In this document: positions 43,849 to 63,873 of the stretch, in pieces
How positions within the stretch are numbered: position 1 is the first letter of the stretch
Layout of the letters: each line of letters starts with the position of its first letter
Source of the DNA: Pseudomonadales bacterium
Lineage (GTDB): Bacteria; Pseudomonadota; Gammaproteobacteria; Pseudomonadales; IMCC2047
Direction of reading: 5' to 3'
Assembly: GCA_024234615.1 (NCBI GenBank)
Contig: JACKNY010000001.1
Span: forward strand, 1,176,012-1,240,011
Length of the DNA stretch: 64,000 bases
Position numbers and translations under genes: made by a program
The notes under the pieces: model-generated
Database searches by the model: none
What the model saw: the letters and a program-made list of their open reading frames with translations, nothing else
What the model was told of the DNA's origin: nothing

Positions 43849-43920
43849 TGGAAGCTTACCCGTCGTTGTAAAATTGGCGCTGGATTATAGTGTCAGCCAA
43901 AACGAATTCAAACCCTGTCG

Positions 43921-45342: not shown

Positions 45343-45460
45343 TTGAATGATAATTCGGTTTATGTTTTAATTCAAGTCTGTGGTAATTTCAGGAGATGCT
45401 GATGAATAAGATGTTAATTGGTTTAGCGTCACGGCATGAATAACAACTGGCAGGAACAAG

Positions 45461-46795: not shown

Positions 46796-46870
46796 TAGCC
46801 TGTTAAGGAGTGTCCTTAATTCCTTAGCAGTTTGCTATATCCTGCGAGCAGGAACGCCTGTGGAGGGTCA

Positions 46871-47722
46871 ATGAGTCTGAGTGCGTCAGCTAAGCATCCG
46901 CCTCATTTGTGGTTTAACCTGTTTAAATACGCTATCTACGGGCTTTTAGTCTTAAATATTTTTCTGTTTTTTAGGGACGATTGGCTGGCTGCGCAACACC
47001 TGTTCGCGACCGGCTTTTCGATAGCGCGTCTAGTCGAAGCCTTTGCGACTACCTTGGATACGACAGCCTGGGTCATCTTGCTGTTACTCTTTGAGCTGGA
47101 AACCTACGTTATTCCCGATGAAAAAATCAAAGGCAGGCTCAAGTTTAGCTTGCATGGAATACGGGCACTTTGTGTCTGTGCGATTCTCTATGCCTTTTAT
47201 GGATACGTTGCCAGATGTCTCGCGCTTTATGAAATAACACCGGTATCCGCCACTGATCTTTGCAGTCTGATAGGGTCGTCTTTTTACTATATGACCGGCC
47301 ATGACCAGTACAGAGTGCTGGATGCTCTTAGCTGCCAATCGTTGAATCCAACAGCCGCTGCGGTACTTATGTTGGAATCAAATGTCATCACAGATCAACG
47401 CACCTTGGAAGCTGCTCAATGGTTGTCCTGGGTCGATGTTGTTAACGCCGGCGATTGGCTGCTAGTAGTGTTGGTGTTGGAAATAGATGTACGGCTACAG
47501 TTGAGAGGAATGCTAACAGGGCGCGTCCTGCTGGCGAGTAAAGCGACCAAAGGGCTGTTATACAGTGTGCTCCTTTTAGCGGCGGCCTACTGGTGGGCGG
47601 AAGGCGACTTTATCGATTTCTGGGATGCGTTTCTCTGGATCATTGCCTTCATCTTTATTGAGATGAATGTCTTTGAATGGCAGGTGGAGACCGCTCGCAA
47701 GAACAAACCCAAGCTAAGTTAG
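46871..47722 (+). CDS. Polytopic membrane protein of unknown function
   Basis: It has several TM helices. Three of them end in a similar acidic motif (LLLFELET, VLVLEIDV, FIFIEMNV). GGAGG precedes ATG 46871. Confidence 0.5.
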   Translation: MSLSASAKHPPHLWFNLFKYAIYGLLVLNIFLFFRDDWLAAQHLFATGFSIARLVEAFATTLDTTAWVILLLLFELETYVIPDEKIKGRLKFSLHGIRALCVCAILYAFYGYVARCLALYEITPVSATDLCSLIGSSFYYMTGHDQYRVLDALSCQSLNPTAAAVLMLESNVITDQRTLEAAQWLSWVDVVNAGDWLLVVLVLEIDVRLQLRGMLTGRVLLASKATKGLLYSVLLLAAAYWWAEGDFIDFWDAFLWIIAFIFIEMNVFEWQVETARKNKPKLS

Positions 47723-47730
47723 AGCGAAAT

Positions 47731-48588
47731 TTATGAGGGTGAGGAGCGTGCAGTTATGGCGCTTTGATAGGGTATCAAGGGATCCCCGCCTTCGTAGTTG
47801 TCGATACTCATCAGCGAGTCGATGAATAAATGAAAGAGTTCGCCCTGGGTGCTGATATCAAGTTTCGCATAGGCATTTTTTCGGTGCAGCTTCACCGTTT
47901 CTACTGAGATGCTGAGCCGTGAAGAAATAGCTTTAGTTGAATAGCCGTGCAGGATCATTTGCACCATCTGGCTTTCACGTTCTGTTAGCATACTTTTACC
48001 AAAATACTCCAGCGCGGCTTCGAGCCTGCCACGCAGATCCTTTTGCGTGCCGAATTCGAAATCTTCCGTATGCCAGTGCTGGGTGACCAATGCTTCCACC
48101 AAGGGTGTTATTTCCGAGAAGTGCAGCAGTTGCTCTGCGCTGAACGGAGCGGACATGCTGATACGGCCGAGTGAAATATTAACAAAATTTTTGCCGGTAT
48201 CGCCGAGCTGAATTAGATAGCCGCATTCATCAATCAGCCCTGAGGATTTATAGTAAGTCCGATAATATTCGCTGTGATCAAAACCGGAGGGCGCCAGTTG
48301 GTTGAGCTGATAAAAGCCGCGCTGGTTCTTCTTGGTCGCTGCCAAATAATAAGGGTCCAGTAAAAACGCGCCTTTGACAAAGCGGTCAATAGTTGAAGCC
48401 CGCTGACCGCTGGGCAGATCGTTATGTTCGATACGAGGCAATTTTTTACTGGGGTAGGTGATAATCACCACATTATCGAGTGCCGCGAGTTGTTTGAAGT
48501 ACTTGGCGAGCATTGACGGGAATACGTCTGAGCGTAATCGGGGTACGAGCTGTGCTGTCGCAGTGCTGAATTTTGCAAGGAATGACAT
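47731..48588 (-). CDS. LuxR-family transcriptional regulator (C-terminal HTH, uncharacterised N-terminal domain)
   Basis: The C-terminus is LTERESQMVQMILHGYSTKAISSRLSISVETVKLHRKNAYAKL. Confidence 0.8.
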   Translation of the reverse strand: MSFLAKFSTATAQLVPRLRSDVFPSMLAKYFKQLAALDNVVIITYPSKKLPRIEHNDLPSGQRASTIDRFVKGAFLLDPYYLAATKKNQRGFYQLNQLAPSGFDHSEYYRTYYKSSGLIDECGYLIQLGDTGKNFVNISLGRISMSAPFSAEQLLHFSEITPLVEALVTQHWHTEDFEFGTQKDLRGRLEAALEYFGKSMLTERESQMVQMILHGYSTKAISSRLSISVETVKLHRKNAYAKLDISTQGELFHLFIDSLMSIDNYEGGDPLIPYQSAITARSSPS

Positions 48589-48840
48589 AGATTCACTTAA
48601 ATTTTCTAATTATGCGTTGAAATGATAGCTTGATTTCACCGTGCTTAACATCCCTAATGCCGCCCAACTAAGAAACAAGCCATCGCGTTTTCATCGAAAA
48701 CGTACAGGATGATAGGTTATAGTACTACCTCTTCGGGTTATGTTATTTTGGCGGTGACATCATTATCATGCCAATGGTAAAGCTAAAGACGAATATGTTC
48801 TGCGTGCTGCGTGAAAAATTGAGTATGTGAGGAGTAATAA

Positions 48841-50274
48841 ATGAAAGGGTACGATAATTTTTATATTAATGGCGAATGGGTAAGCCCTATAACGGAGCGC
48901 ATGCAGGATGTTATCAATCCGGCGACTGAGCAGGTGATCGGGCGGGTCGCACTGGGCAATGCTGCTGATGTTGAGAAGGCAGTTGCCGTAGCGCGGGTCG
49001 CCTTTGAGACGTGGTCTCAGACCTCTGTTGAGGAAAGACTGGCGCTGTTAGAGCGCATTATTACACTGTATAGCGAACGGATGGAAGAAATGGCGCAGGC
49101 GATCTCCTCTGAGATGGGAGCGCCGATCCGTTTAGCGCGCAACTCGCAAGCACCGATCGGTCTGGTTCACTTTAAAACTGTGCGCAAAGTGTTGCAGTCA
49201 TACGATTTTGAAGAATCCTTGGGTGGCAGTCAGCTTGTCAAAGAACCCATAGGGGTGTGTGGTTTTATTACGCCCTGGAATTGGCCGATGAATCAGATCG
49301 CCTGTAAGGTTGCGCCTGCGTTGGCATGCGGTTGTACCATGGTGTTAAAGCCCAGTGAACTGGCACCGATATCCGCCAATCTTTTTGCTCAGATTATGCA
49401 CGATGCCGGTGTGCCGCCCGGTGTTTTTAATATGGTCAATGGTGACGGGCTCGGTGTTGGCGCGGCGCTGACAGCGCATCCGGATGTCGATATGGTATCG
49501 CTCACTGGCTCAACCCGGGCCGGCATTCAGGTGTCAAAGGCGGCGGCGGATACGGTTAAGCGTGTGGCGCTGGAGCTAGGCGGTAAGTCTCCTAATATTA
49601 TTCTGGAAGATACAGATTTTGACGCAGCTGTGGCGGCAGGCGCCACCGAATGCTTCCGTAACACTGGACAATCCTGCAATGCGCCAACACGTATGCTAGT
49701 TCCCGCCCGTCTGCATGATCGTGCTGTTGAAATTGCCAAGGCGACAGCGGAGGAAACCATTGCTGGCGACCCCCAATCCAAGCAGACGGTGATCGGGCCA
49801 TTGGCCAATAGCGCACAATTTAGCAAGGTGCAATCAATGATTCAGGCCGCTATTGATGAGGGTAGTGAATTAGTGGCTGGCGGTGTGGGGCGGCCGGATG
49901 GCCTGGAGCGTGGCTACTTTGTCAAAGCTACCGTGTTCGCCAATGTGAAAAATGACATGCTGGTGGCACGCGAGGAAGTCTTTGGTCCGGTATTAGCCAT
50001 TATGCCTTATCAGGATGAGGACGAAGCGGTAGCGATAGCCAACGATTCGCCCTATGGATTGGCCGGTTACGTGCAGTCAGGCGATATCGAACACGCGCGA
50101 GCGATTGCCCGAAAAATTCGCGCGGGCACAATCTTCCTCAATGGTAATAACTTTGACCCTAATGCGCCCTTTGGCGGTTACAAACAATCCGGTAACGGTC
50201 GCGAATGGGGCAGCTTTGCCTTCCATGACTTCCTTGAACTTAAGGGCATCGTCGGTTACAACCCCCCAGCCTAG
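48841..50274 (+). CDS. NAD(P)-dependent aldehyde dehydrogenase (PuuC/PauC-like)
   Basis: ALDH motifs FITPWNWP, LELGGKSP (Glu site), FRNTGQSCNAPTR (Cys site) and EEVFGPV. Confidence 0.88.
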   Translation: MKGYDNFYINGEWVSPITERMQDVINPATEQVIGRVALGNAADVEKAVAVARVAFETWSQTSVEERLALLERIITLYSERMEEMAQAISSEMGAPIRLARNSQAPIGLVHFKTVRKVLQSYDFEESLGGSQLVKEPIGVCGFITPWNWPMNQIACKVAPALACGCTMVLKPSELAPISANLFAQIMHDAGVPPGVFNMVNGDGLGVGAALTAHPDVDMVSLTGSTRAGIQVSKAAADTVKRVALELGGKSPNIILEDTDFDAAVAAGATECFRNTGQSCNAPTRMLVPARLHDRAVEIAKATAEETIAGDPQSKQTVIGPLANSAQFSKVQSMIQAAIDEGSELVAGGVGRPDGLERGYFVKATVFANVKNDMLVAREEVFGPVLAIMPYQDEDEAVAIANDSPYGLAGYVQSGDIEHARAIARKIRAGTIFLNGNNFDPNAPFGGYKQSGNGREWGSFAFHDFLELKGIVGYNPPA

Positions 50275-51423: not shown

Positions 51424-52704
51424 TTGCGTAGATTGGTAATTCCTGTCTTAGCAGCCGAGGAGGTTCTTATCAACTGTTCCGTCAATATTCAGCGTATTGA
51501 AAAAGACCTTTACCGTTTATCCGAGTTCGGTTGCAACGCCGCCGAGAAAGGTATTTATCGACAAGGATTTAGTGAAGCCGACTGGCAGGCACGCACTTGG
51601 TTAATGGATTATTTTCGCCAACATAGGCTGGTTACGCATATGGACGGCGTGGGTAATGTTTGCGGACGCTTGGGAGATGATGAGCAGCCAGCGGTTCTAA
51701 TCGGTTCGCATCTGGACTCGGTACCCGCCGGGGGAATGTTTGACGGTGTGCTTGGGGTGATCGCAGGTCTTGAGTGTATTAGGGTGATCCAGGAGCAAAA
51801 AATACCCCTGAAACACCCGATTGAAGTAATCGCCACCAGTGAAGAAGAGGGGCGTTTTGGCGGGATGCTGGGCGCTCAGGCATTGACCGGCGCACTGACG
51901 CTGGACTGGCTGGAACATGCCAAAGCGCCAGAAGGTTTAAGCTTGGTCGACGCGATGGCCCAACGGGGATTGGATTATCATCAGGCACTGCACGCTTACC
52001 GTACACCGGAAAGCATAAAGGCGTTTCTTGAACTGCACATCGAACAGGGTCCGGTGCTAGAAGCCAGCGGTAATAGCATTGGCGTTGTCGAGGGTATTTC
52101 CGGTGTATTCAAGTGGTTGATCAAATTGATTGGCAAAGCCGATCATGCGGGAACGGCGCCGATGAATATGCGCAGCGATGCCTTTATGGGGGTGGCGGAT
52201 TTCGCCCATGAAATTCAGCGTATCATTGACGAGGACGGTACCGATAAATCGCGTCTGACTATCGGACGGGTTGAACTGAAACCCGGCTACGCCCACACCA
52301 TCCCCGGAGAGGCGGATTTTACTCTGGTAGGCCGCGATATGTCTGAGGAGGTTATGCACGAATTGGCGGCCAACTGTCGCAAAGCTTTATCATCGATTGC
52401 GCGTCGGCACCGCTTGATGTTTGAGTATGAACAAATGAGTTGGTTGGGGCCGAAAAGTTGTTCGCAAGACATTATGTCGCTGATCGAAGCACATACCCGC
52501 AAACTGAATTATAGCTATGAAATCATGCCCAGCGGCGCCGGACACGATGCTCAGTTTTTCACTGATATTACACCGACTGGTATGATATTTATTCCCAGTA
52601 TCGGCGGTATTAGCCATGCGCCAGACGAATGGTCGCACTGGGCGGATGTCGAAAAGGGCTGCAATGTATTGTTGAATACGGTCATTGAACTGGCGGCGGA
52701 ATAA
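51424..52704 (+). CDS. M20-family Zn-dependent amidase of the hydantoinase/carbamoylase (allantoate amidohydrolase / N-carbamoyl-amino-acid hydrolase) type. The start is uncertain.
   Basis: GSHLDSVPAGGMFDGVLGVIAGLECIR, ATSEEEGRFG, ELHIEQGP and HAPDEW motifs. Confidence 0.8.
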   Translation: MRRLVIPVLAAEEVLINCSVNIQRIEKDLYRLSEFGCNAAEKGIYRQGFSEADWQARTWLMDYFRQHRLVTHMDGVGNVCGRLGDDEQPAVLIGSHLDSVPAGGMFDGVLGVIAGLECIRVIQEQKIPLKHPIEVIATSEEEGRFGGMLGAQALTGALTLDWLEHAKAPEGLSLVDAMAQRGLDYHQALHAYRTPESIKAFLELHIEQGPVLEASGNSIGVVEGISGVFKWLIKLIGKADHAGTAPMNMRSDAFMGVADFAHEIQRIIDEDGTDKSRLTIGRVELKPGYAHTIPGEADFTLVGRDMSEEVMHELAANCRKALSSIARRHRLMFEYEQMSWLGPKSCSQDIMSLIEAHTRKLNYSYEIMPSGAGHDAQFFTDITPTGMIFIPSIGGISHAPDEWSHWADVEKGCNVLLNTVIELAAE

Positions 52705-52736: not shown

Positions 52737-54749
52737 TTATGCCGTCCAGTTTAATGCTTCTGCGCGTTGTGCGGCGAATTTCGGCACATCCTGCGCAACA
52801 AAGTGGTGATGCAGCAATTGCACGCCAAGAATATGATTGATCATGGCATCTAACTGAACTTTAGTCTCGTTATCCATCGCTGGGTTTTCGTGATTATTTA
52901 GCAGCGTTTCTATCGCCTGATAATCAAGTAGGCCGGCAGCCTCAACCTTCTCCCTGTTCGCGTATTCGTGCATCAGACCCAGCATCGAGCGCCATTTCTT
53001 TTTGTCGGTATGCGCTGGCGGCGCCATGAACGCAAACTTCTGCCGTTTATACAGGGTTTCCGGCAGCAGCCCTTTCATCGCTTCGCGTAAGACGTATTTT
53101 TCGGTTGCACCCTTGATCCGTAGTTGCGGTGGTACCTGGGTTGCGAACCGTGCCAGATGGTGATCCAAAAATGGAGGGCGTGCCTCCATTGAGTTTGCCA
53201 TATCTACCCGATCCCCGCCCCAAGTCAGGATTTGACCTTCAAGCATGGTTTTGATCCAGACATATTGCGCTTTATCTAAGGGATGCCTGCCATCCAGCTG
53301 GCTTTTATCGAATGTCGCGGCGATGGCGTCACCGGCGTCATAGTCCGCTAATTGCTGGCGCCATTGCGGATTAATCAACGGCATGGCGAAATCATGACAG
53401 TGTAGCCAGTTTTGTAAACAGCTGGGAGTGAAGCCCACCACAGCATTCATTGCTGCCGAGCTAAAATCTTCACGTGGCAACATAGCGCCACGAAATAATT
53501 GGTTGCTGGCTTCCAGGCTGGCCTGCCATTCTTTGCGCAAACTGGCAGGCAGGTTGTCCAGGCCATACAGAAACATATCTTTGCGGAAGGCGGGATAACC
53601 AGCGAATAGCTCGTCGGAGCCTTCACCGGTCAGCACGACCTTATAGCGATTTTTCTTCACCGTTTCGCTCATCAATAACTTGGCGACCCCCAGGGTATTG
53701 TAGATAGTTCTTTCGGTGTGCCAGAGTGTGCGGGCGAAATGGTCATACAGTTGTTCGGCGGAGAGGGATAGTACCAATTGTTCCGCGCCGGTCATTTCAG
53801 CCATTTCGCGGGCAATTGGGGTTTCGTCATAGTCGCTACTGTCAAATCCGATGGTGAATGCTTTAACGGGATCTTGGCGTACGGCGGCGGATAGGCCAAG
53901 AATGGAGCACGAATCAATACCGCCGGACAGGTAACAGCCTACTGGAACATCCGCCTGCAGACGATGTTGTACGGCTTCCAGTAACTGCTCTCTGACCCCT
54001 TCGATGTAATAATTTTCATCGCGTTGATTGACATAATCCCCGGCCACGGGAAAGTCGATATCCCAGTATTTTTGTTGATGAATTTTTAGTTGGCCGTCTT
54101 TGCGTTGAATTTTAATCAGCTGTCCGGGCGGCACTTGATGCACACCTTTGAAGGCGGTGCTGCCGGGCACCATGACTTGAATTAATTGGTGGTAGACACC
54201 TTCTGCTGTGAGCTCGCGTTTCACGCCGGGATGAGCAAACAGTACTTTCAGTTCCGAACCGAAAACGACGCCGTCTTCGGTCTCCGCCCAATATAGGGGC
54301 TTAACGCCGAACCGATCGCGTACCAGGTAAAGGCAGTCTTCGGCCTTATCGAACAGGGCAAAAGCAAACTCACCACGTAAATAGTCCAGCGTTTTTTCCA
54401 TACCATAGCGTGGATAGAGGTGCAGAATAATTTCAGAATCACTTTTGCTGGCGAAACGGTCGCCAGTTGAAACCAGGTTAGCGCGAATGCGCTGGAAATC
54501 GTAAAACTCGCCGTTATGTACTAGCCAAAGATTTTGTTCGGGTGATACGTACGGCTGGCGGCCTCGCTCCTCGTTGAGATCAATAATTGACAGGCGCGCA
54601 TGACTCATACCCATGCCCAAGCCAGCCGGGTTAGCATAGCCGAAATTATCGGGGCCGCGATGGTGTTGAATGGCCGCCATGTTGACTAATAGTTGTGAGT
54701 CGATCGGTTGTTGCGCGTCGCGGTGAAAAACACCAGCAATACCACACAT
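52737..54749 (-). CDS. Long asparagine-synthase-family glutamine amidotransferase (AsnB-like, 670 aa)
   Basis: N-terminal MCGIAG (Cys2 glutaminase nucleophile). PP-loop CYLSGGIDSCS. Confidence 0.85.
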   Translation of the reverse strand: MCGIAGVFHRDAQQPIDSQLLVNMAAIQHHRGPDNFGYANPAGLGMGMSHARLSIIDLNEERGRQPYVSPEQNLWLVHNGEFYDFQRIRANLVSTGDRFASKSDSEIILHLYPRYGMEKTLDYLRGEFAFALFDKAEDCLYLVRDRFGVKPLYWAETEDGVVFGSELKVLFAHPGVKRELTAEGVYHQLIQVMVPGSTAFKGVHQVPPGQLIKIQRKDGQLKIHQQKYWDIDFPVAGDYVNQRDENYYIEGVREQLLEAVQHRLQADVPVGCYLSGGIDSCSILGLSAAVRQDPVKAFTIGFDSSDYDETPIAREMAEMTGAEQLVLSLSAEQLYDHFARTLWHTERTIYNTLGVAKLLMSETVKKNRYKVVLTGEGSDELFAGYPAFRKDMFLYGLDNLPASLRKEWQASLEASNQLFRGAMLPREDFSSAAMNAVVGFTPSCLQNWLHCHDFAMPLINPQWRQQLADYDAGDAIAATFDKSQLDGRHPLDKAQYVWIKTMLEGQILTWGGDRVDMANSMEARPPFLDHHLARFATQVPPQLRIKGATEKYVLREAMKGLLPETLYKRQKFAFMAPPAHTDKKKWRSMLGLMHEYANREKVEAAGLLDYQAIETLLNNHENPAMDNETKVQLDAMINHILGVQLLHHHFVAQDVPKFAAQRAEALNWTA

Positions 54750-54854
54750 ATAATGCTCCTTTGTGTTACAAAAAACCGGACTAAGGAGAAGTTAGTCCGA
54801 ATCGGAAGTTGGTCATATGAATACCTATGATTGGATTAGCCTATGCGTTGAAGG

Positions 54855-55934
54855 TCACACTACGTCCATTACCCGCTCGGTGCGTTCGCACATACAGGTC
54901 AGTAGCGCCATACGCAAAAAGACGGCCCCGCGTGCTTGCGAGAAATACCAGTTATGCGGCGTTTCATCCAGGTCGGTAGCTAGTTCTTCGCCGCGTGCGA
55001 GAGGGTGCATTATGATCGCGTCGGCTTTTAATGGGCTCGACTTGCTGAGCACAAAGCGCCTGCCGAAGGATTCAAAACTTTCCCCCACCCAGGCGATTGC
55101 ATTGATGTATATGACGTCAAGTCGCGGCAACAGGCCGTTCAAGTCACTACTAACCTGTACCTGAAGACCTGCTTTTTCCAATTGCTCCCGCTGTCCCTCA
55201 TCGAAAATGGTATCAATGCCGGTATCATGGAAAATGATGATTTCATCGATAATTTCTGGAAATATGGCGAGCATTTTTAATAAGCTGCGCACAGTCCGCA
55301 TTTTATTGGGTAGCCCGACAATGCCGATTTTAATAGGCTGATGCAGTTCAGAGTCCTTGTTCAGGAGTTGAGGGTGCCATTTGAAAATGGTGTAGAGATC
55401 CGCCAGCGCCTGAGTTGGATGCTCATCCAATCCATTACCCGCATTGATAATCGGAATGCGTAGTGTCTGCATCATTTCCTTGACGGCGCTTTCGCCGCTA
55501 TCGCGAAGCACTACACAGTCGCCATAATTATTGAACATCTCTCCGACATCCGTCAGTGACTCTCCTTTGGCGATGCCCGTTGTCGAGCGATCAGTAATCG
55601 ACATGATGTCTCCGCCCAGACGATGCCAGGCGCTTTCGAAGGAAAGGCGTGTCCGTGTGCTGGGCTCGTAAAAAGCGCTGATCAGTATCTTCCCCTGTAG
55701 CGGCGTGCTATAGCGGTCAGGGTTGCTTTCGTACTTGGCCGCGAGCCGGAATAGCTGGAGCAGTGTCTGGCGATCAAACTGATCGGAAGAAACAATGTGT
55801 TGTGACGCTAATTTTTTCAGGTGATCGCCGTCCTCCTGTACCTCTCTTAATAGCGCTTTGGGATGCGCATCGCCATAGACATCTGGCGCTTCACGTTTGA
55901 ACGCCACCGCCTCTTCACCAATTTTCGTTACCAT
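54855..55934 (-). CDS. PyrB-like transcarbamoylase of unknown second-substrate specificity (359 aa)
   Basis: Carbamoyl-phosphate motifs are conserved (EPSTRTRLSFE, NAGNGLDEHPTQALADL, MHPLARGEELATDLDETPHNWYFSQA). The position of the PyrB TRVQKER aspartate-binding motif reads NAIAWVGES. The protein also has an N-terminal extension of about 37 aa. Confidence 0.75.
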   Translation of the reverse strand: MVTKIGEEAVAFKREAPDVYGDAHPKALLREVQEDGDHLKKLASQHIVSSDQFDRQTLLQLFRLAAKYESNPDRYSTPLQGKILISAFYEPSTRTRLSFESAWHRLGGDIMSITDRSTTGIAKGESLTDVGEMFNNYGDCVVLRDSGESAVKEMMQTLRIPIINAGNGLDEHPTQALADLYTIFKWHPQLLNKDSELHQPIKIGIVGLPNKMRTVRSLLKMLAIFPEIIDEIIIFHDTGIDTIFDEGQREQLEKAGLQVQVSSDLNGLLPRLDVIYINAIAWVGESFESFGRRFVLSKSSPLKADAIIMHPLARGEELATDLDETPHNWYFSQARGAVFLRMALLTCMCERTERVMDVV

Positions 55935-56047
55935 AAATCACCTTTTTTCCAGTCCCTGATCAACAGGCCAATTAAAATCAATGGAGACAGACAGGTCACC
56001 AGTAACGCACCGCTAATTAACAACTCAAATAGCGTTAGGCTGATCAT
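55928..56047 (-). CDS. Unannotated 39-aa single-TM micro-protein
   Basis: MISLTLFELLISGALLVTCLSPLILIGLLIRDWKKGDLW*. Its ATG shares one base with the SSS stop (TGATG), and its stop overlaps the transcarbamoylase start (ATGGTAA). GGAGGAG lies upstream. I verified it base by base. Confidence 0.6.
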   Translation of the reverse strand: MISLTLFELLISGALLVTCLSPLILIGLLIRDWKKGDLW

Positions 56048-57474
56048 CAAAGCTCCTCCTTTGCGTTTTGTAATCGCGCCCAATCAAATTGAGCGTCCTG
56101 TAACCACAAGCCGATGACGCATATCAGCAGGGATATCAGGCAGGAAGTTAACGCCGCCACGTAAAAGCCAATCTGAAAATAACCGAATAAGCCGCTGAGT
56201 GTACCCAACCCCATTGCCAGTGCCGCGAAAGCGCCCGTTAAGCGGCGGCGATACAAGCCAAAAACAATGGGCCAAATAGTGCTGGCAACAAAAGCTCCGG
56301 TAAAATTGAGCAATTCACCCAAGGTTGTCAGACGTGGCAAGCAAAGCACCCAGGTTGTCAGACCGAGCCCCAGCACCACCAGTTTGCTCACTTTGAATAA
56401 GTGCTGTTTGTCAGAGGCTGGACGCAACAAGCCACGGTAGATATCTTCGGTCAGCAGGTCGCCGGTGGCGGCAAGGAGCGAGTCGAGACTGGACGCTAAC
56501 GCTGAAAAGACTACGATAAACACAAATACGGCGCCGATTTCACCCAATAATTTAGCTGCTACCAGGGGGCCAATCATATCCGGACTTGGCGGATAAACAT
56601 TTAAAGAGGAACTGGCAAGGGCAATAAAGCCGGTAACAATCGGAATCGGCAGCCAGAGCAATCCGGCCAGCAGATAAGCGCGTTTGCCGAGCCCTTTCCG
56701 AAAGGCAAAAGCCCGAGACCACCAGACATTGGAATGAAAAATTTCACCGATGCCGAAAAAAATATTATTGAACAAAAACATAATCGCTGCCGGGAAAAGC
56801 AGGTTTAACAACTGAGGTTGTTCTGTTGAGACATTTTGGTAAATCGTTGTCAGGCCGACATCGCGCCAACAAACATAGCCGATAAAGAGGACGCCAAAGA
56901 GAATAATCAAGGTCTGAATGTAGTCTGTTGCAATAACTGCACGCAACCCACCGAGTAATGTGTAGGAAACACAGATCACTAAAATGGCCGTCATGCCGAG
57001 GTGATAATCTAGTCCGCTCAAGGCTTCTAACAGAATGCCTCCGGCCATACCGAGGCTGACCAGCCAACCCATGGCGTAGAAAAAGGAAACTACCAGGAAA
57101 ACATACCAGGCCGTTCTGCCGAAACGCAGGCGGATAAAATCACCACAGGTGTATCCGCTGGGCATTAGTGCTTTGATGCGTTGCGCCATGGGTGCAAAGA
57201 AAATAAGTCCGAGCGCGGCCATGGAATAACCAACCATGCCCCATATGCCAAACTGGTAAGTCAACTGGGGAGCCACAAGGGTCGTGTTGCTGGTAATCCA
57301 GGTTGCCATGGCCGTGGCCGAGGCGAGGGCCAGCCCGACGTTACGCCCTGCCAGCATATAGTCTTCAAGGGTTTTATTACGACGCCCGAGCCACCAGCCA
57401 AAAGCAATCCAGCCCGCGCCAAAAAGAAGTAAAATAATAAGCGCGGTCTGTGTCGGTATCTGAGAGTCAATCAT
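56047..57474 (-). CDS. Sodium:solute symporter (SSS) family transporter, substrate unknown
   Basis: About 13 TM segments. N-terminal region: LGRRNKTLEDYMLAGRNVGLALASATAMATW, GLRAVIATDYIQ. Confidence 0.85.
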   Translation of the reverse strand: MIDSQIPTQTALIILLLFGAGWIAFGWWLGRRNKTLEDYMLAGRNVGLALASATAMATWITSNTTLVAPQLTYQFGIWGMVGYSMAALGLIFFAPMAQRIKALMPSGYTCGDFIRLRFGRTAWYVFLVVSFFYAMGWLVSLGMAGGILLEALSGLDYHLGMTAILVICVSYTLLGGLRAVIATDYIQTLIILFGVLFIGYVCWRDVGLTTIYQNVSTEQPQLLNLLFPAAIMFLFNNIFFGIGEIFHSNVWWSRAFAFRKGLGKRAYLLAGLLWLPIPIVTGFIALASSSLNVYPPSPDMIGPLVAAKLLGEIGAVFVFIVVFSALASSLDSLLAATGDLLTEDIYRGLLRPASDKQHLFKVSKLVVLGLGLTTWVLCLPRLTTLGELLNFTGAFVASTIWPIVFGLYRRRLTGAFAALAMGLGTLSGLFGYFQIGFYVAALTSCLISLLICVIGLWLQDAQFDWARLQNAKEEL

Positions 57475-57953
57475 GGTCTTTGTGCATGTTTACGGGTAAA
57501 TTGCAGAAGACAAGCCAGTAATAAAATAAAGAGTAGCAGGCCGATACCGAATAACAGGAATGCGTTTTTCAGGCTGTGGTGTTGCACACGAAATTGGATG
57601 ATGGCGGAGAGCGGTTGTCGTTGTTCCCCCACTAGGCGCGCATAGTAGAGACCATTTTCAAAGCCACTTAGGTGTACCTTGTTTTGTTGCGGTAGCCGCA
57701 ATTCTCGTAGGCGATGGGTAAACGCCGCATCCCTTGAAATTTGTAGGCTCGCCGGGGTTGCGTTGTTCTGCGTATCCTGCTGTACATCCCAATACAACGT
57801 AACAAACCCCTCTTTCGAAAGTTCGGTGTTAACGGTGAGGGAGGAAGGCATTATCGCAGCAACAAGAATTGCGGGAAAGGCGGTTAATATTAACAGTAAT
57901 ATCCGTAAATCTGTGAGCATGGAAACGGGCAAATCAGCTGGATTAGGAGGCAC
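57471..57953 (-). CDS. Bitopic (N- and C-terminal TM) small protein with a ~100-aa extracytoplasmic domain, coupled to the SSS gene
   Basis: TM1 is LRILLLILTAFPAILVAAI and TM2 is AFLLFGIGLLLFILLLACLL. Its stop overlaps the SSS start (ATGA). Confidence 0.6.
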   Translation of the reverse strand: MPPNPADLPVSMLTDLRILLLILTAFPAILVAAIMPSSLTVNTELSKEGFVTLYWDVQQDTQNNATPASLQISRDAAFTHRLRELRLPQQNKVHLSGFENGLYYARLVGEQRQPLSAIIQFRVQHHSLKNAFLLFGIGLLLFILLLACLLQFTRKHAQRP

Positions 57954-58074: not shown

Positions 58075-58848
58075 CTATCGCGATCTCAAGGCTACGCCAA
58101 AAGCCTTGAACAAGGCACGTGAAAAAGGATTTTCTTGAAAACGCCATTCAGGGTGCCACTGCACGCCAACGACAAAATGATCCACACTTTCCAGGCGGAA
58201 GGCTTCGACCAAACCATCAGGGGCATAAGCTTCAACAAGCAAACCCTTACCCAGTCGATTCATGCCTTGGCCATGCAAAGAGTTAACGCGGATGGATTCG
58301 GTATTGGCCAAATTCGCTAATATACCGCCGGGCGCCAATTGCACTTCATGAGTATCTGAGTACTGTGCTTCCCTCGATAGGCTTTTATCCTCACGATGAT
58401 CCATCATCCCTGGAATTTCATGCACGCGTTGATGTAGCGTTCCCCCCAGCGCCACATTGAGTTCCTGCATACCCCGGCAAACGGCAAGTATCGGCATCTT
58501 CCGTGCTAATGCGGCTTTAATCAGCGGTAGCGTGGTGTTATCACGTTGCGGGTCGTGTGCCTCAGGCGTAAGACTTTGTTCTTTGCTGTATAGGTGTGGT
58601 TGCACGTTGGATGGACTGCCGGGGAAAAAGAGTCCGTCAAGCGTATCGAGTAGCCGTTCCATGCTTGAATCATCATTGCGAATCTGCAAGTCGTCACCGG
58701 GACCCCGTGCAGGAATTAACAAAGGGCAGGCATCCGCGCCGTTGGCGACGGCATTGATATATTTTTCCCCCACTCCGTGAAAGGGATGCATGCCATTGCG
58801 GATGACGTCGCAGGGAATGCCAACGATAGGGTAACGACTTGAACGCAT
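58075..58848 (-). CDS. Gamma-glutamyl-gamma-aminobutyrate hydrolase (class-I GATase-like peptidase C26; PuuD/PauD-like)
   Basis: PILAVCRGMQELNV carries the Cys nucleophile, and VGVQWHPEW the His. The start at MRSSRYPIVGIP (58848) is preferred over 58866. Confidence 0.85.
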   Translation of the reverse strand: MRSSRYPIVGIPCDVIRNGMHPFHGVGEKYINAVANGADACPLLIPARGPGDDLQIRNDDSSMERLLDTLDGLFFPGSPSNVQPHLYSKEQSLTPEAHDPQRDNTTLPLIKAALARKMPILAVCRGMQELNVALGGTLHQRVHEIPGMMDHREDKSLSREAQYSDTHEVQLAPGGILANLANTESIRVNSLHGQGMNRLGKGLLVEAYAPDGLVEAFRLESVDHFVVGVQWHPEWRFQENPFSRALFKAFGVALRSR

Positions 58849-59009
58849 AAAAACTCCTGAAACCACCCCTTTTGGGTTAAGTTAATTCTAAATGAATTGT
58901 GCCAATATATTTAACACTAATTTGACACCCTTACCCCATACCTCTTAGGTGTAGGGTTTGTCGGCACGATTTAAAGCCTGATTTAAAGTAACAAGATAGG
59001 AATACCTAC

Positions 59010-60377
59010 ATGAATGCCCAAAACCAAACACTGGAATTACAGGCGCTGGACAAGGCGCACCATCTACATCCGTTTACGGATATTAAAAAGTATCAACAGA
59101 CGGGTGGACGGATTATTTCTCGTGCGGAGCATATCTACATCTACGATACCGACGGTAACCAGATTCTGGATGGTATGTCTGGGCTCTGGTGCTGCAACTT
59201 GGGATATAGTCAGACCAAAATCTTTGACGCGATTAATGAACAGTTGCATAAACTGCCTTTCTACAACAACTTCTTTAACTGTTCGAATGAGCCTTCGGTG
59301 ACGATGGCAAAGGCCTTGGTGGATGTTACCCCATCCCAATTTAATCATGTGTTTTTTACCAACTCTGGATCAGAGGCCAATGACACCAATATCAAACTGG
59401 TGCATCGCTACTTTGACTTGCTTGGCAAGCCCGAAAAGAAACACTTTATTGGCCGTATCAATGGCTACCACGGCAGTACTATCGCTTCTTCCAGCCTCGG
59501 TGGTATGGACTTTATGCATAAGCAGTACACGGGACTCGATTACGTCCATCATATTGGGCAGCCGCATTGGTTTAAAGAAGGCGGCGAATTAAGTCGAGAT
59601 GAGTTTGGTCTTAAGGTGGCGCGTGAATTAGAACAGAAAATCGATGAAATTGGTGAGCATAAAATTGCCGCTTTTATTGCGGAGCCGATTCAGGGTTCGG
59701 GCGGGGTTATCGTGCCGCCGAAAACCTATTGGCCGGAAATCCAACGAATCTGTAACGAGCGCGAAATTTTGTTAATCAGCGATGAAGTGATTTGTGGCTT
59801 TGGCCGCACAGGAAACTGGTTTGGTTGCGAGACCTACGGTATTAAGCCCGATTTGTTGACCTTCGCGAAAGGTGTTTCTAACGGCTATCAGCCCTTGGGT
59901 GGAGTTATGGTGTCGGATAAGATTGCCGATGTGTTAAGTACCGGCAGCGGCGATTTCGCGCATGGCCTGACCTATTCCGGTCATCCGGTGGCCTGCGCAG
60001 CGGGCATTGCTACCATCAATATTCTCAGAGAAGAAAAGATTATTGAAAAGGTGGTTGCTGATATCGCGCCATATTTAGAGCGGCGCTGGAAAGAACTGGC
60101 GGATCATCCGCTTGTAGGAGAGGCGCGTGTAAAAGGCATGGTTGCCGCGTTAGAGTTGGTTAGCGACAAATCTTCGCGGGAAAAGTTGGCGCTAAACGGT
60201 GAGGGTGCGCTGTTCTGTCGCGATACTGCCATAGCCAACGGATTGATGGTGAGAGCCGTAGGCGATGCAATTATTTCTGCGCCGCCCGTTATCTGTAGCA
60301 AACAGGAAATTGATACCTTGATTGAACGATTGCTTTTTGCCTTGGATGCGACTGCGGCGCATTACAATATTCGTTAG
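59010..60377 (+). CDS. spuC: Class-III (omega) aminotransferase, putrescine/polyamine--pyruvate aminotransferase-like
   Basis: FTNSGSEANDT, AAFIAEPIQGSGGVIVPP, LISDEVICGFGRTG and TFAKGVSNGY (PLP Lys). Confidence 0.8.
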   Translation: MNAQNQTLELQALDKAHHLHPFTDIKKYQQTGGRIISRAEHIYIYDTDGNQILDGMSGLWCCNLGYSQTKIFDAINEQLHKLPFYNNFFNCSNEPSVTMAKALVDVTPSQFNHVFFTNSGSEANDTNIKLVHRYFDLLGKPEKKHFIGRINGYHGSTIASSSLGGMDFMHKQYTGLDYVHHIGQPHWFKEGGELSRDEFGLKVARELEQKIDEIGEHKIAAFIAEPIQGSGGVIVPPKTYWPEIQRICNEREILLISDEVICGFGRTGNWFGCETYGIKPDLLTFAKGVSNGYQPLGGVMVSDKIADVLSTGSGDFAHGLTYSGHPVACAAGIATINILREEKIIEKVVADIAPYLERRWKELADHPLVGEARVKGMVAALELVSDKSSREKLALNGEGALFCRDTAIANGLMVRAVGDAIISAPPVICSKQEIDTLIERLLFALDATAAHYNIR

Positions 60378-60443
60378 CCGCTAGGTTTACACCCCTTTGC
60401 GGGGCACCAAAAAAGCCGATAAAAATAATCTTGGGAGCGGATA

Positions 60444-61820
60444 ATGACGGCAACAGTGAACCATATTAAAACCCTCGGCCAAAAGGATATGGTGCTTTTT
60501 ACCGTATCCGCTATCCTCTTACTGGACACCTTGACCGCAGCCGCTTCGGTTGGTTCTTCGAGTATTTTTTGGTGGTTGTTTTTAGGCTTGATCTTCTTTG
60601 TGCCATTTGCGCTGATCTCTGCGGAAATGGGCTGTACCTACCCGGAACAGGGTGGAATTTACGCCTGGATTCGTGATGCATTTGGCGGGCGATGGGCGTC
60701 AAGAGCCACCTGGAGCTATTGGGTGAATACAGCTGTATGGATTCCCGCCATCTATATTTTATTTGCCGGTATTTTCAAGCAATTATTCTTTCCAGAGCTT
60801 TCGCTGGTTTGGCAAATTGGTATTGGTATTGGCCTGACTTGGTTTGCCGTATTCGTTAATATCATTACTCTGGATGTTGGCAAGTGGGTGCCCAATATCG
60901 GGGCAATATTTAAAGTGGTGGTATTTCTCGCCATTATCGTAGGTGCTTTCATTTATACCCAGAGTCATGGTATGGCCAACGAATTAACCTTGGCTTCCCT
61001 GAAGCCCAGTTGGAATTCCAGCTTGCAGTATATTCCGGCGATCATATACGGCATGCTAGGCTTTGAACTGGTCAGTTCAGGTAGCGCAGAAATGAAAAAT
61101 CCAGCACGCGATGTACCCCGTGCGATTTTTATTTCAGGGCTGATGATTATCGTGCTTTATACCTTAGCTACTATTGCGGTGCTGGCAGCTATCCCAGCCA
61201 GAGAAATTAACCTGGTAGAAGGGTTGATGGACACCCTTTATCTATTCTTTGGCACAACGGAAACAGGGCGGGTATTTGCCTTGGCGTTAGGCGTTGCTGC
61301 ACTCTATACTTTTTTTTCAAACGGCGTTACCTGGGCCTTGGGTTGTAATCGGGCGGCAGCGGAAGCGGCAATGGAAGGTGAGTTGCCTGCCTTCTTCGCC
61401 ATCGAAAGTAAAAGCCGTGGGACACCGCTTGGCGCGGCTGTGGCTATGGGTACGGTCAGCACCTTGCTATTAATTATGTATGGTTTTATGGCGGGTTCGA
61501 ACGAAGATCTGTTCTGGTCGCTGTTTGCGTTTAGCGCCGTCATTTTTTTATTACCCTATATCGGTATGATGCTGGCATTCATCAAAATGCGTATCACTGA
61601 TCCGCGTCGTGCTCGACCCTTCGCCATCCCTGGGAACCTATTTGTCGCCCGTGTGCTTGCCTGTAGCTGCATTTCGGTTTTGCTGCTAACCATAATGCTT
61701 TTTGTTTATACACCCGGCGAGGGCATCCAGTGGCCGGTGCTGTTAGGTGCTGTTAGTATGATTATGTTAGGCGAAATAGTCATTCGCTGTTCAGAGCAAG
61801 ATAAGTTCCGTAGTCATTAA
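60444..61820 (+). CDS. APC-superfamily amino acid/polyamine permease
   Basis: About 12 TM segments. N-terminal region includes ISAEMGCTYPEQGGIYAWIRDAFG. Confidence 0.8.
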   Translation: MTATVNHIKTLGQKDMVLFTVSAILLLDTLTAAASVGSSSIFWWLFLGLIFFVPFALISAEMGCTYPEQGGIYAWIRDAFGGRWASRATWSYWVNTAVWIPAIYILFAGIFKQLFFPELSLVWQIGIGIGLTWFAVFVNIITLDVGKWVPNIGAIFKVVVFLAIIVGAFIYTQSHGMANELTLASLKPSWNSSLQYIPAIIYGMLGFELVSSGSAEMKNPARDVPRAIFISGLMIIVLYTLATIAVLAAIPAREINLVEGLMDTLYLFFGTTETGRVFALALGVAALYTFFSNGVTWALGCNRAAAEAAMEGELPAFFAIESKSRGTPLGAAVAMGTVSTLLLIMYGFMAGSNEDLFWSLFAFSAVIFLLPYIGMMLAFIKMRITDPRRARPFAIPGNLFVARVLACSCISVLLLTIMLFVYTPGEGIQWPVLLGAVSMIMLGEIVIRCSEQDKFRSH

Positions 61821-61980
61821 CCTATTTCGCGGTTCAATTGGTTTCTTCATTATTTCCTATGGAATTAATCAGAGTTTCCCCTAAGCAATAAACATATATC
61901 GCTCAAAAAATTATTACTGCATTCTGTACGCTAACGGGAATAGTATTGTAAATTGCGTAGCCATTCTTACTGAGGTGAAA

Positions 61981-63873
61981 ATGCAAGAACACAAACTAGA
62001 ACCACCAGCCAAGTTCGGCGCGTTTCTGGGGATGGCCCCGGGCGAGGTGCCGGTTTATTCATCCGATTATGAAACCGCAGATGACGAACAATTACCTGAT
62101 CGCCATGCCTATCGAAGCTACGTCGACGGCATTTATATGGGCTACAAGTGGCAATGTGTTGAGTTTGCGCGACGCTGGATGTATCTGAACAAAGGTTACA
62201 TTTTCGATGATGTGGCGATGGCTTATGATATTTTTCGCCTTGGTTCGGTGCGGGTCGCCCATGAGAACAAAAGGTTACCTCTACATGCCTTTCGCAATGG
62301 CTCGAAACGTCATCCCGAGCCGGGCTGTCTGCTGATCTGGGATGAAGGTGGGGAGTTTGAAGACACCGGACATGTCGCGGTGGTGACGGAAGTGACTGAG
62401 CACTACACACGCTTCGCGGAACAGAATGTGGGGCATAGGATTTGGCCGGCAGGTCGAAACTATGCGCGCGAAATTAAAGCGAAGGTGACGGAATCCGGCG
62501 AATATTGGTTGGAGTGTTCCTTTGGCGATGCCAGTATTCGCGGCTGGGTTATTCAGACCGACGACGATCGTTACGCAGAAAAATTCCCGGCATTGGATAA
62601 ACGTCTTCTTAACGTGCAGATGCGGGAGGTTCCGAATCACGGTCAGGCTGAGCGTTCCTGGTTGAACATTGCAAATCCCGATGAAGCGGCCTATGTGGAA
62701 TTGATGCAGGGGCACAGGATGACAGCTGTTGAGGTGGACCAATACAAATACTTTTGCATCTCAGAAACGGCCAACGCAGAACTCAAGCGTGCCACTAATG
62801 AATTGCATCAGCTGTTTATGCACGCCACGGACTACGTTTTGCGCGATCCTGAATTGCTGGAAAATTTTAACATCCCTCGCGCATTGTGGGGGAAAATCCG
62901 GCAATCTTGGAATAACCGGCGTAATCAGATGATCACCGGTCGTTTTGACTTTTCTCTTTCTGAGCGCGGGCTCAAGGTCTATGAATATAACTGTGACTCC
63001 GCTTCGTGCCATATTGAATGCGGCAAAATTCAGGGTAAGTGGGCCAAGCATTTTGGCTGTACCCTGGGCCGTGATCCGGGTCAGGCGTTGCACGCAGAGT
63101 TACGCGATGCCTGGCAGGCCAGCGGTGTGAAGACGGATGTTCTCCACATTATGCAAGATCGCGACCTTGAGGAAACCTATCATGCTCTATTTATGCAGGA
63201 AGCGATGGAGGAGGCGGGGATCCGCAGTAAGATCATTCATGGCGTGACGGGCCTGAGTTGGGATGAGGCGGGTAATATTCTGGATGCCGATGGCGATAGA
63301 ATCCGCTGGGTTTGGAAAACCTGGGCCTGGGAAACGGCATTGGATCAGATTCGTGCCGAATGCGAAGATGATGAAGAAAAACTCAATAATTACCCAGCGG
63401 GCGAACAACATGCCGGAGCGCCGAGGTTAGTTGATGTTCTGTTACGTAAAGACGTCATGGTGTTCGAACCCCTGTGGACTTTAATTCCCAGCAATAAGGC
63501 TATCCTGCCGGTACTTTGGACGCTGTTTCCAAACCATGATTACCTGTTGAATTCTTCCTTCCAGCTCTCGGAGGATTTGCAGGCGCAAGGTTATGTCGCC
63601 AAGCCCATTGCTGGCCGTGCGGGTCTGAATATCAGTATTTTCGATAAGAATCACCGATTGTTGGAAGGCACCGAGGGACGCTTTGAAAGCCAAAATATGA
63701 TTTTCCAGGAATTTTTCAAACTCCCCATGATCGAGGGTTACAACGTGCAGCTCAGTACTTTTACGGCAGCGGGCACTTATGCGGGGAGTGGCGTACGGGT
63801 CGACCCCTCGTTGGTGATTAAACTCAATAGTGACACCATGCCGCTACGGGTGTTGCCGGATGCCGAGATGTAA
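61981..63873 (+). CDS. gsp: Bifunctional glutathionylspermidine synthetase/amidase
   Basis: N-terminal CHAP amidase YKWQCVEFARRWMY (catalytic Cys). C-terminal ATP-grasp-like synthetase (GRFDFSLSERGLKVYEYNCDSASC). GAGGTG precedes ATG 61981. Confidence 0.85.
   Translation: MQEHKLEPPAKFGAFLGMAPGEVPVYSSDYETADDEQLPDRHAYRSYVDGIYMGYKWQCVEFARRWMYLNKGYIFDDVAMAYDIFRLGSVRVAHENKRLPLHAFRNGSKRHPEPGCLLIWDEGGEFEDTGHVAVVTEVTEHYTRFAEQNVGHRIWPAGRNYAREIKAKVTESGEYWLECSFGDASIRGWVIQTDDDRYAEKFPALDKRLLNVQMREVPNHGQAERSWLNIANPDEAAYVELMQGHRMTAVEVDQYKYFCISETANAELKRATNELHQLFMHATDYVLRDPELLENFNIPRALWGKIRQSWNNRRNQMITGRFDFSLSERGLKVYEYNCDSASCHIECGKIQGKWAKHFGCTLGRDPGQALHAELRDAWQASGVKTDVLHIMQDRDLEETYHALFMQEAMEEAGIRSKIIHGVTGLSWDEAGNILDADGDRIRWVWKTWAWETALDQIRAECEDDEEKLNNYPAGEQHAGAPRLVDVLLRKDVMVFEPLWTLIPSNKAILPVLWTLFPNHDYLLNSSFQLSEDLQAQGYVAKPIAGRAGLNISIFDKNHRLLEGTEGRFESQNMIFQEFFKLPMIEGYNVQLSTFTAAGTYAGSGVRVDPSLVIKLNSDTMPLRVLPDAEM

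Follow-up and report, generated by a model that had tools for sequence, protein, structure and literature searches.

What is made, moved or broken down by the five-gene operon at positions 52737–57953 of a 64,000-nucleotide stretch of Pseudomonadales DNA (GenBank assembly GCA_024234615.1, contig JACKNY010000001.1; the whole stretch is called the window here)? The operon encodes an accessory membrane protein with two transmembrane (TM) helices, a transporter of the SSS family, a 39-residue micro-protein, a carbamoyltransferase resembling aspartate transcarbamoylase (ATCase), and a long glutamine-dependent amidotransferase of the AsnB family. Our tentative answer, one of several weighed below, is that the operon and an adjoining M20-family hydrolase gene may constitute a module for making, taking up and breaking down carbamoyl-glutamine amide (CGA) or a close analogue. 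The compound handled by the module is most likely a small, neutral solute, rich in nitrogen, with one ureido group and one newly added carboxamide.

What was observed directly is the order of the genes, their co-conservation, the families to which they belong and the residue patterns of the active sites. The list of open reading frames (ORFs) and the reading of the strand confirm five ORFs, all on the minus strand. The two-TM gene and the transporter gene are joined by an ATGA stop/start overlap at 57471–57474, the transporter gene and the 39-residue ORF by a one-base TGATG overlap at 56047, and the latter and the carbamoyltransferase gene by a 7-nt overlap at 55928–55934 (TTATGGTAA); the AsnB-like gene follows after a 105-nt spacer and is preceded by a good Shine-Dalgarno sequence. 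Each of these junctions was read in the sequence and agrees with the layout given in a first-pass annotation of this DNA, the gene-family calls of which were also right by domain search (SSF, OTCace_N with OTCace, and GATase_7 with Asn_synthase). A locus scan of GTDB species, each represented by a single genome, gave 80 loci, and in all 80 the genes for the SSS transporter, the carbamoyltransferase and the AsnB-like enzyme have the same order and strand, with 62–84% identity to the window proteins. The overlapping junctions and this constancy of order bear out the earlier view of a co-conserved operon. The genera represented include Ketobacter, Kangiella, Aliikangiella, Pleionea, Idiomarina, Pseudidiomarina, Aliidiomarina, Pseudoalteromonas, Bowmanella and Alteromonas, along with Thiotrichaceae, and the order transporter, micro-protein, carbamoyltransferase, AsnB is found again in cyanobacterial and planctomycete-like contigs. 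The operon is real and strongly conserved among bacteria from the sea and from salt lakes that belong to three phyla, and its gene order recurs far beyond chance. Named hosts are overwhelmingly marine, haloalkaliphilic or saline, and single clusters at 90% identity hold up to 2,432 metagenome sequences.

Conservation is uneven within the cluster. Between the window gammaproteobacterium and cyanobacteria, the carbamoyltransferase and the AsnB-like enzyme share 63–65% identity, the transporter 46% and the M20 protein 34–37%; the first two form the invariant core and are better conserved than anything else in the cluster. All-against-all ORF clustering yielded no further gene conserved across the 80 loci, only lineage-specific synteny with aconitase, Hsp20, CheW, malic enzyme and the like. 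The unit of five genes proposed at first is nevertheless too small, since it missed the convergent, co-conserved M20 gene downstream. This gene adjoins the cluster in 33 of the 37 loci outside Idiomarinaceae, in either orientation, and is also found at the cluster in cyanobacteria, Ectothiorhodospira, Thioalkalivibrio and planctomycete-like contigs; it belongs to the conserved unit.

Part of this synteny was already in print. Barba, Dutoit, Legrain & Labedan (2013, BMC Syst Biol 7:99, PMC4016543) defined 'pseudo-ATCases' and described the gene neighborhood of their subgroup 3 without assigning a function. Their supplementary tree labels the clade ATC_III_HPLA and includes members from Rhodopirellula baltica, Nitrosococcus oceani, Thioalkalivibrio K90mix, Synechococcus WH8102 and Idiomarina loihiensis (PMC4016543). 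The earlier statement that the operon maps to no described pathway is therefore correct for its function, not for its synteny. A literature search found no later paper on the clade, and searching by the locus tags SYNW245x and RB133xx gave nothing functional. The window carbamoyltransferase has the clade's motifs, HPLA at 265–268 and [AS]I[AS] at 229–231, which are also carried by the published members Q7U3H8, D3SBQ0 and Q7UHC6 in the deposited alignment. Further likenesses are the marine hosts, a genuine PyrB alongside in relatives, and a neighborhood of Na+ symporter, carbamoyltransferase, AsnB-type gene and N-carbamoyl-amino-acid amidohydrolase, met both in the window and in related loci. 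In the 2013 paper, however, the AsnB-type gene is termed a 'putative asparaginase', and there is no mention of the two small membrane proteins, of the relationship to DUR3, of the transporter-less version in Ectothiorhodospira, or of isochorismatase-like, DUF1028 and MarR partners. New here are the kinship with DUR3, the pair of micro-subunits, the wider range of partners and the version without a transporter, as is the parallel with the N-acetylglutaminylglutamine amide (NAGGN) system drawn below. As a point of nomenclature, Table 1 of that paper lists HPLA/AIA under 'pseudo-ATCase 1' and HSLP/VXP under 'pseudo-ATCase 3', whereas by the tree labels and the alignment HPLA belongs to group 3, the marine one, and HTLP/HSLP to group 1, that of Rubrobacter and Clostridium; the group numbering seems to be swapped between Table 1 and tree S6.

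The active site of the carbamoyltransferase constrains the acceptor. Across 88 sequences the equivalents of STRTR, K84, R105, HPTQ and R167 are invariant, so that the carbamoyl-phosphate-binding residues (STRTR, R105, HPTQ) are all present. R167 is the residue that binds the α-carboxylate of the substrate in E. coli ATCase. Position 229 is Ala or Ser and position 231 is Ala or Ser (Val) in 88 of 88 sequences, followed by an invariant Trp; the window enzyme reads YINAIAW where the RxQ motif, with the aspartate β-carboxylate binders R229 and Q231, is expected. W282 and HPLAR, which replaces HPLP, are likewise invariant. The enzyme shares with PyrB the fold, the OTCace_N and OTCace domains, all carbamoyl-phosphate residues, K84 and R167, but differs in the absence of R229 and Q231, in HPLA for HPLP, in an N-terminal extension of about 40 residues, in the lack of a pyrI or pyrC neighbor, and in scores below every NCBIfam equivalog cut-off (TIGR00670, 193.4 vs 236.95; NF002032, 191 vs 263). 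By this residue pattern the window enzyme is not a PyrB, and aspartate is not its predicted acceptor. The retention of R167 with Ala or Ser in place of both β-carboxylate binders points instead to an α-amino acid with an uncharged side chain, and implies that the carboxylate of the acceptor would still be free at the carbamoylation step. The concern, raised with the first annotation, that the gene might be the only pyrB of its host is probably unfounded, as R229 and Q231 are missing and relatives have a genuine ATCase besides: R. baltica carries a genuine PyrB (RB7429) next to its pseudo-ATCase according to the text of Barba et al., and a second Kangiella koreensis sequence, C7R831, is labelled ATC_II in their supplementary tree (PMC4016543).

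The only biochemically tested 'pseudo-ATCase' is Rxyl_2847 from Rubrobacter xylanophilus, characterised by the same authors as a ureidoglycine carbamoyltransferase that acts in allantoate phosphorolysis (PMC4016543). It resembles the window enzyme in being ATCase-like without RxQ and in handling an α-amino acid with a neutral (ureido) side chain. It differs in its HTLP motif, in PGC at 229–231, in lying on a separate branch of the tree, and in a purine-catabolic context that includes allantoinase and carbamate kinase. With motifs, branch and context all different, the Rubrobacter function was rejected for the window enzyme.

The AsnB-like protein passes TIGR01536 (435, cut-off 267) and misses both the AsnB equivalog NF006949 (272 vs 499) and the NAGGN AsnO model TIGR03104 (311.8 vs 570.1), which aligns mostly over the N-terminal half. 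Across 84 sequences there is little or no variation in Cys2 and the R/N/G/E/D residues that make up the glutaminase site, in the PP-loop SGGIDS or in TGEGSDEL, and because glutaminase site and PP-loop are preserved in this way we infer a working glutamine-dependent amidotransferase. The best PDB matches are TsnB9 and human ASNS (about 159 bits). The window protein has 670 residues compared with the usual 550 or so, and about 110 residues (397–509) are unaligned to these matches.

The M20 protein passes two models, TIGR01879 (369 vs cut-off 204) and NF006771 (526 vs 399), for the hydantoinase/carbamoylase family and a subfamily, and its best PDB match is the Geobacillus L-carbamoylase 3n5f, at 263 bits vs 194 for AllC. 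The best substrate-named model other than those for allantoate is ErtE, an N-carbamyl-L-glutamate amidohydrolase, but the score stays below that equivalog cut-off (369 vs 520). The start codon of the M20 gene is uncertain: the longest ORF begins with TTG without a Shine-Dalgarno sequence, a GAGGAGG at 51457–51463 lies downstream of this TTG and is followed only by ATC at 51469, and homologues align from about residue 20. Amide-type hydrolases of the isochorismatase-like, DUF1028 or asparaginase II type are found at the cluster in other lineages. Somewhere in the family, each proposed synthetic step appears to be paired with a matching hydrolase, M20 for the ureido group and one of the latter three for the amide.

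The contexts in distant lineages vary around the same core. Synechococcus-like contigs have the transporter, a 47-residue protein, carbamoyltransferase, AsnB, M20 and DUF1028, placed between nitrate-assimilation genes (narB, nrtP, moa) and a urease operon. Other cyanobacteria have asparaginase II, a 48-residue protein, transporter, micro-protein, carbamoyltransferase, AsnB, DUF1028, M20 and also a GMC oxidoreductase, with carB a few kb away, and in Thiothrix nivea the two-TM protein, transporter, micro-protein, carbamoyltransferase and AsnB lie near nirBD. Planctomycete-like metagenome contigs (45–50% identity) carry MarR, two-TM protein, transporter, carbamoyltransferase, AsnB, M20 and an isochorismatase-like hydrolase, with the run from the transporter to the hydrolase co-directional. 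One high-GC contig of this kind (L119) has in addition a SAM-dependent methyltransferase gene (4726–5520, plus strand) between the MarR and two-TM genes, which was not seen in other lineages. In Ectothiorhodospira mobilis, MarR, M20, isochorismatase-like hydrolase, carbamoyltransferase and AsnB genes follow one another on a single strand, flanked by genes for sucrose synthase and a PfkB kinase, and a transporter is lacking; the carbamoyltransferase is present in three E. mobilis genomes. Thioalkalivibrio nitratireducens has the same five genes, also with no transporter in the cluster, and a BCCT transporter gene about 1.8 kb upstream, beyond a porin gene. MarR genes also flank the cluster in Kangiella, Aliikangiella and Pleionea; no MarR gene stands beside it in the window. 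Carbamate kinase is found in none of the Pfam-annotated contexts (cyanobacteria, Thiothrix, Ectothiorhodospira, Thioalkalivibrio and others). The carbamoyltransferase–AsnB core is thus surrounded by a transporter with small partners, a carbamoylase, a variable second amidase and often a MarR regulator.

The transporter has a likeness that the first-pass annotation missed. Its best solved relatives are DUR3 urea symporters (108 bits, E 5e-30), and every other solved SSS protein scores 43 bits or less (E 4e-10 or weaker). The urea-site residues of AtDUR3 (PMC11840088) were mapped onto the window transporter by alignment, and the columns were checked in 85 family members, where they are invariant or nearly so, cyanobacteria included. 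W93, T98, Y117, W338, P342 and P474 are kept. Of the eight residues that are not those of AtDUR3, six belong to the urea pocket (W95T, A97N, Q124G, N305G, Y315W, Y461L) and two are the proton-coupling D312 and E402, which correspond to S248 and L333 (D312S, E402L). Among the nine positions W93/W95/T98/Y117/Q124/N305/Y315/W338/Y461 taken as the urea site, four are conserved. Summing standard residue volumes by hand gives about 200 cubic angstroms of extra room; the substrate pocket is probably altered and larger, and for the same reason would fit a substituted urea rather than urea. Alanine replacement of five ScDUR3 residues (AtDUR3 numbering) nearly abolishes urea transport (PMC11840088), and three of these five are changed in the window protein. 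On these pocket residues a plain urea transporter was rejected. Compared with DUR3 (AtDUR3, PDB 9j7c and relatives), by a wide margin the closest solved group and sharing six site residues, the window protein is also shorter, at 475 vs about 700 residues, and is accompanied by two small membrane proteins.

These two small proteins match no Pfam or NCBIfam model. The micro-protein (MISLTLFELLISGALLVTCLSPLILIGLLIRDWKKGDLW) is a TM helix with a central Pro followed by (K/R)D(W/Y/F)xxxx(L/I)W, about 40 residues in all. In 82 of 83 loci the transporter and carbamoyltransferase genes have between them a TM peptide that ends in [LIVM]W (the exception, L084, ends in TW), and it is present in cyanobacteria and called by independent annotation of metagenome contigs; it is probably a small transporter subunit. 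The first gene had been described as encoding a bitopic membrane protein. A membrane protein it is, but with two predicted TM helices (residues 10–34 and 128–157), namely an N-terminal TM helix or signal anchor and a C-terminal TM helix with an A..F..G motif, separated by a periplasmic stretch of about 90 residues. An AlphaFold2 model made without an alignment gave two long helices and a low-confidence middle, with a pLDDT of 56 for the model. The family occurs upstream of the transporter in 77 of 80 loci, and its C-terminal helix aligns with the 48-residue protein upstream of the transporter in cyanobacteria, with A131, F135 and G138 invariant. Because of this homology and the conservation of the micro-peptide, the transporter appears to have two conserved single-helix partners. 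In Thiorhodospira sibirica (L087, 9885–11080) only a 40-residue micro-ORF and the carbamoyltransferase are left, flanked by patatin and acyltransferase genes; SSS and AsnB are absent from the locus, and the micro-ORF has stayed with the carbamoyltransferase, not with a transporter. With only these two genes retained, the case was set aside as uninformative.

From the contexts and residue patterns we infer an acceptor, a reaction order, a product and a physiological role. The ATCase-like enzyme would carbamoylate the α-amino group of a neutral L-amino acid, probably glutamine, from carbamoyl phosphate, and the long AsnB-like enzyme would then adenylate the α-carboxylate of the N-carbamoyl amino acid and amidate it with glutamine-derived ammonia. 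For CGA, the intermediate would be N-carbamoyl-glutamine and the product its 1-amide. Re-import or scavenging of the ureido solute would fall to the DUR3-like sodium symporter and the two single-helix proteins that accompany it. The M20 carbamoylase would undo the carbamoylation, and the second amidase (isochorismatase-like, DUF1028 or asparaginase II) would undo the amidation in other lineages, so that the hydrolases could draw the pool down when the osmotic pressure falls or nitrogen is needed. The core is favored to run in the biosynthetic, carbamoylating direction, because both enzymes spend energy (carbamoyl phosphate in the one case, ATP and glutamine in the other) and no carbamate kinase is present in the annotated contexts; the oxygenic cyanobacteria among the named hosts also count for this direction. 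The first-pass annotation preferred import plus conversion and offered synthesis of a carbamoylated, amidated molecule as the alternative. It is the alternative that gains, in view of the energy-spending core, the lack of carbamate kinase in the annotated contexts and the transporter-less clusters of Ectothiorhodospira and Thioalkalivibrio.

CGA comes into question through one of these hosts. Ectothiorhodospira marismortui accumulates CGA and has been equated with E. mobilis (Roberts 2005), and NCBI taxid 195064 files E. marismortui under the name E. mobilis. The carbamoyltransferase and AsnB genes thus stand in one cluster in a CGA-producing species, a match at the species level. A literature search found no assignment of CGA biosynthetic genes.

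The cluster architecture also resembles that of a known osmolyte system. The osmotically induced NAGGN operon encodes a MarR repressor (PA3458), an AsnB-like amidotransferase acting on the C-terminal carboxylate (AsnO, PA3459), an N-capping enzyme (Ngg, PA3460) and a metallopeptidase-family hydrolase (an M42 peptidase, PA3461) (PMC8070244). By analogy, both systems would cap an α-amine and amidate an α-carboxylate with an AsnB-family enzyme, both have a metallopeptidase-family hydrolase in the operon and MarR nearby, and the NAGGN product is a neutral glutamine-derived amide, as proposed for the present cluster. They differ in that the cluster would cap by a carbamoyltransferase instead of a GNAT/ligase, has an M20 instead of an M42 hydrolase and a dedicated transporter, lacks MarR beside it in the window, and misses the AsnO cut-off. 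The Ngg GNAT/ligase and the M42 peptidase were found neither in the window nor in those related loci that were annotated, where carbamoyltransferase and M20 stand in their place. More doubtful than the CGA module itself is the wider proposal that CGA or a sibling has two uses in saline waters, as a compatible solute and as a nitrogen-rich currency that can be exchanged. It would be moved by a three-component DUR3-type sodium symporter of a kind not described before, and the genes would form a widespread, horizontally shared module of marine Synechococcus, Idiomarina, Kangiella, Pseudoalteromonas, Thioalkalivibrio, Ectothiorhodospira and planctomycetes.

Several points weigh against a CGA module. 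The link to CGA is a correlation, the co-occurrence in one species within a clade found in hundreds of species, and to our knowledge no CGA was reported when the solutes of Rhodopirellula baltica, of Synechococcus WH8102 and of Thioalkalivibrio were surveyed. An osmolyte with four nitrogen atoms would be surprising in cyanobacteria of the nitrogen-poor ocean. The nitrate/urease placement in Synechococcus-like contigs and nirBD in Thiothrix hint at a role in nitrogen acquisition or as a reserve. Another neutral amino acid could serve as the acceptor just as well, and the AsnB-like enzyme, to judge from its model scores, is not close to NAGGN AsnO. No M20 gene lies within 10 kb of the cluster in the 43 loci from Idiomarinaceae. 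Finally, the hydrolases are co-directional with the synthetic genes in Pseudoalteromonas, Ectothiorhodospira and planctomycete-like loci, which would require that their activity be controlled post-translationally, as we have to assume.

Some of these points agree with a possible, if not probable, variant in which carbamoylation, amidation, hydrolases and uptake are as described, but the product is another carbamoylated amino-acid amide or has another role, as a nitrogen reserve or currency, a signal or a precursor. The active-site pattern of the carbamoyltransferase fixes only an α-amino acid with a non-acidic side chain, and the nitrate/urease island in Synechococcus-like contigs, together with the asparaginase II neighbor and nearby carB in other cyanobacteria, fits such a role. 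Keeping a synthetase and a hydrolase together follows the logic of reserve polymers, of which cyanophycin is an example. Osmolytes are suggested, however, by the link to E. mobilis and by sucrose synthase and BCCT as neighbors, and we know of no other natural product that matches an amino acid bearing exactly one ureido group and one new primary amide.

Import and catabolism of an external ureide or other nitrogen-rich compound, with the carbamoyltransferase working phosphorolytically towards carbamoyl phosphate and the hydrolases freeing ammonia, is an unlikely reading. It would account for a DUR3-homologous transporter as the first large gene, translationally coupled to the enzymes, for the nitrogen-assimilation neighbors in Synechococcus-like and Thiothrix loci, and for M20 and isochorismatase-like proteins, which are typical ureide and amide hydrolases; the phosphorolytic cleavage of allantoate by the related Rubrobacter pseudo-ATCase is a precedent, though one from the HTLP and not the HPLA motif group. 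But an invariant amidotransferase that consumes ATP and glutamine has no obvious catabolic role, the annotated contexts lack carbamate kinase, and Ectothiorhodospira and Thioalkalivibrio keep the enzymes without the transporter.

A route from amine to guanidine is improbable to a much greater degree. The carbamoyltransferase would make a ureido group, the oxygen of which the AsnB-like enzyme would adenylate and exchange for ammonia in the manner of argininosuccinate or GMP synthetase; the AsnB synthetase domain does belong to the PP-loop ATP-pyrophosphatase superfamily, and an agmatinase-family gene lies two genes away in the window. Agmatinase is conserved in no related locus, however, the conserved hydrolases are of carbamoylase and amidase type and not amidinohydrolases, and the AsnB family offers no precedent. 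A second PyrB and a second asparagine synthetase beside a urea transporter, as public annotation (aspartate carbamoyltransferase, asparagine synthase) and the pass of the generic TIGR01536 would have it, deserves hardly any credence and is already largely refuted by the loss of R229 and Q231 in all 88 sequences, the missed ATCase equivalog cut-offs, the genuine ATCases of R. baltica and K. koreensis, the three changed residues among the five that nearly abolish urea transport, and the strict four-gene synteny across phyla.

If the CGA module is right, an osmolyte known since 1991 without genes would gain genes for biosynthesis, uptake and degradation, the scheme of capping the amine and amidating the carboxylate known from NAGGN would become more general, and the module would define a bacterial transporter of the DUR3 type that has two micro-subunits. 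It would also predict an unmeasured compound in the dissolved organic nitrogen of the sea and suggest that a nitrogen-rich solute may be traded in seawater. Even if the product is wrong, the carbamoyltransferase is a clearly delimited enzyme that can be tested and the acceptor specificity of which is new. Many bacteria of the sea and of soda lakes carry the cluster, very abundant picocyanobacteria among them. The constraint on its core is unusually strong, with about 64% identity from one phylum to another, and no function has been assigned to the cluster since its synteny was noticed in 2013.

The operon has local surroundings of its own in the window (Table 1). A Puu-type γ-glutamyl polyamine catabolic island occupies 41827–50274 and 58075–63873 and is split by the cluster; besides the genes in the table it holds a LuxR regulator, aldehyde dehydrogenase, agmatinase, class-III aminotransferase, APC permease and glutathionylspermidine synthetase/amidase (Gss). 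The carbamoyltransferase cluster with M20 looks as if inserted into this island. The first-pass annotation had drawn a functional link to the polyamine and guanidino genes around the operon, which was rejected, since the island is specific to the window and no gene of it recurs next to the cluster in the related loci; PuuD was assigned to the island on the same ground.

Table 1 Features of the operon and its surroundings in the window
Feature	Position	Strand	Description
Two-TM accessory membrane protein	57471..57953	-	160 residues, GTG start
SSS transporter, DUR3-like	56047..57474	-	475 residues, Pfam SSF 96.7 bits
Micro-protein, single TM helix	55928..56047	-	39 residues from ATG; 40 residues from TTG three bases upstream
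ATCase-like carbamoyltransferase	54855..55934	-	359 residues, OTCace_N + OTCace
Long AsnB-family glutamine-dependent amidotransferase	52737..54749	-	670 residues, GATase_7 + Asn_synthase
M20 carbamoylase/amidase, convergent	51424..52704	+	TIGR01879 369 (cut-off 204)
Terminator-like hairpin, carbamoyltransferase–AsnB spacer	54776..54800	-	9-bp stem + T-run
GS-like PuuA genes	41827-43194 and 45461-46795		Two copies in Puu-type island
DAO oxidoreductase (PuuB)	43921-45342		Puu-type island
PuuD	58075-58866		Puu-type island, upstream of operon

The hairpin in the spacer (TCGGACTAA-cttctcc-TTAGTCCGG, then TTTTTTG; 54776–54800, minus strand) was not mentioned in the first-pass annotation; it has the longest stem among the terminator-like sites listed in an 8-kb scan, and may act as an internal attenuator of read-through or set the stoichiometry of the enzymes. 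No σ70-like site was found upstream of the first operon gene, where site counts are no higher than the shuffled expectation, and a check for riboswitches and RNA leaders gave no Rfam match in or beside the window operon.

The Synechococcus-like locus L081 has a Glutamine-II riboswitch before a 55-residue DUF4278 gene beside the cluster, the only nearby Rfam match; the sites of the riboswitch and of a 5' ureB small RNA (sRNA) entry are 15700–15761 (minus strand) and 17903–18189 (plus strand), and the 5' ureB sRNA lies antisense within ureC. A class-I glutamine-amidotransferase-like gene in the same locus (15868–16638, minus strand) overlaps the end of ureC by 4 nt and appears to be the last gene of a ureDABC operon. 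This 'C26/GATase' gene is coupled to ureC and is unrelated to the window PuuD. In the window itself, the segment 32000–36000, just after a tRNA (32427–32511), has a GC content of 0.53–0.56 vs about 0.47 elsewhere and minus-strand ORFs with only weak DUF1570 and C92-amidase matches, and is possibly a small acquired island.

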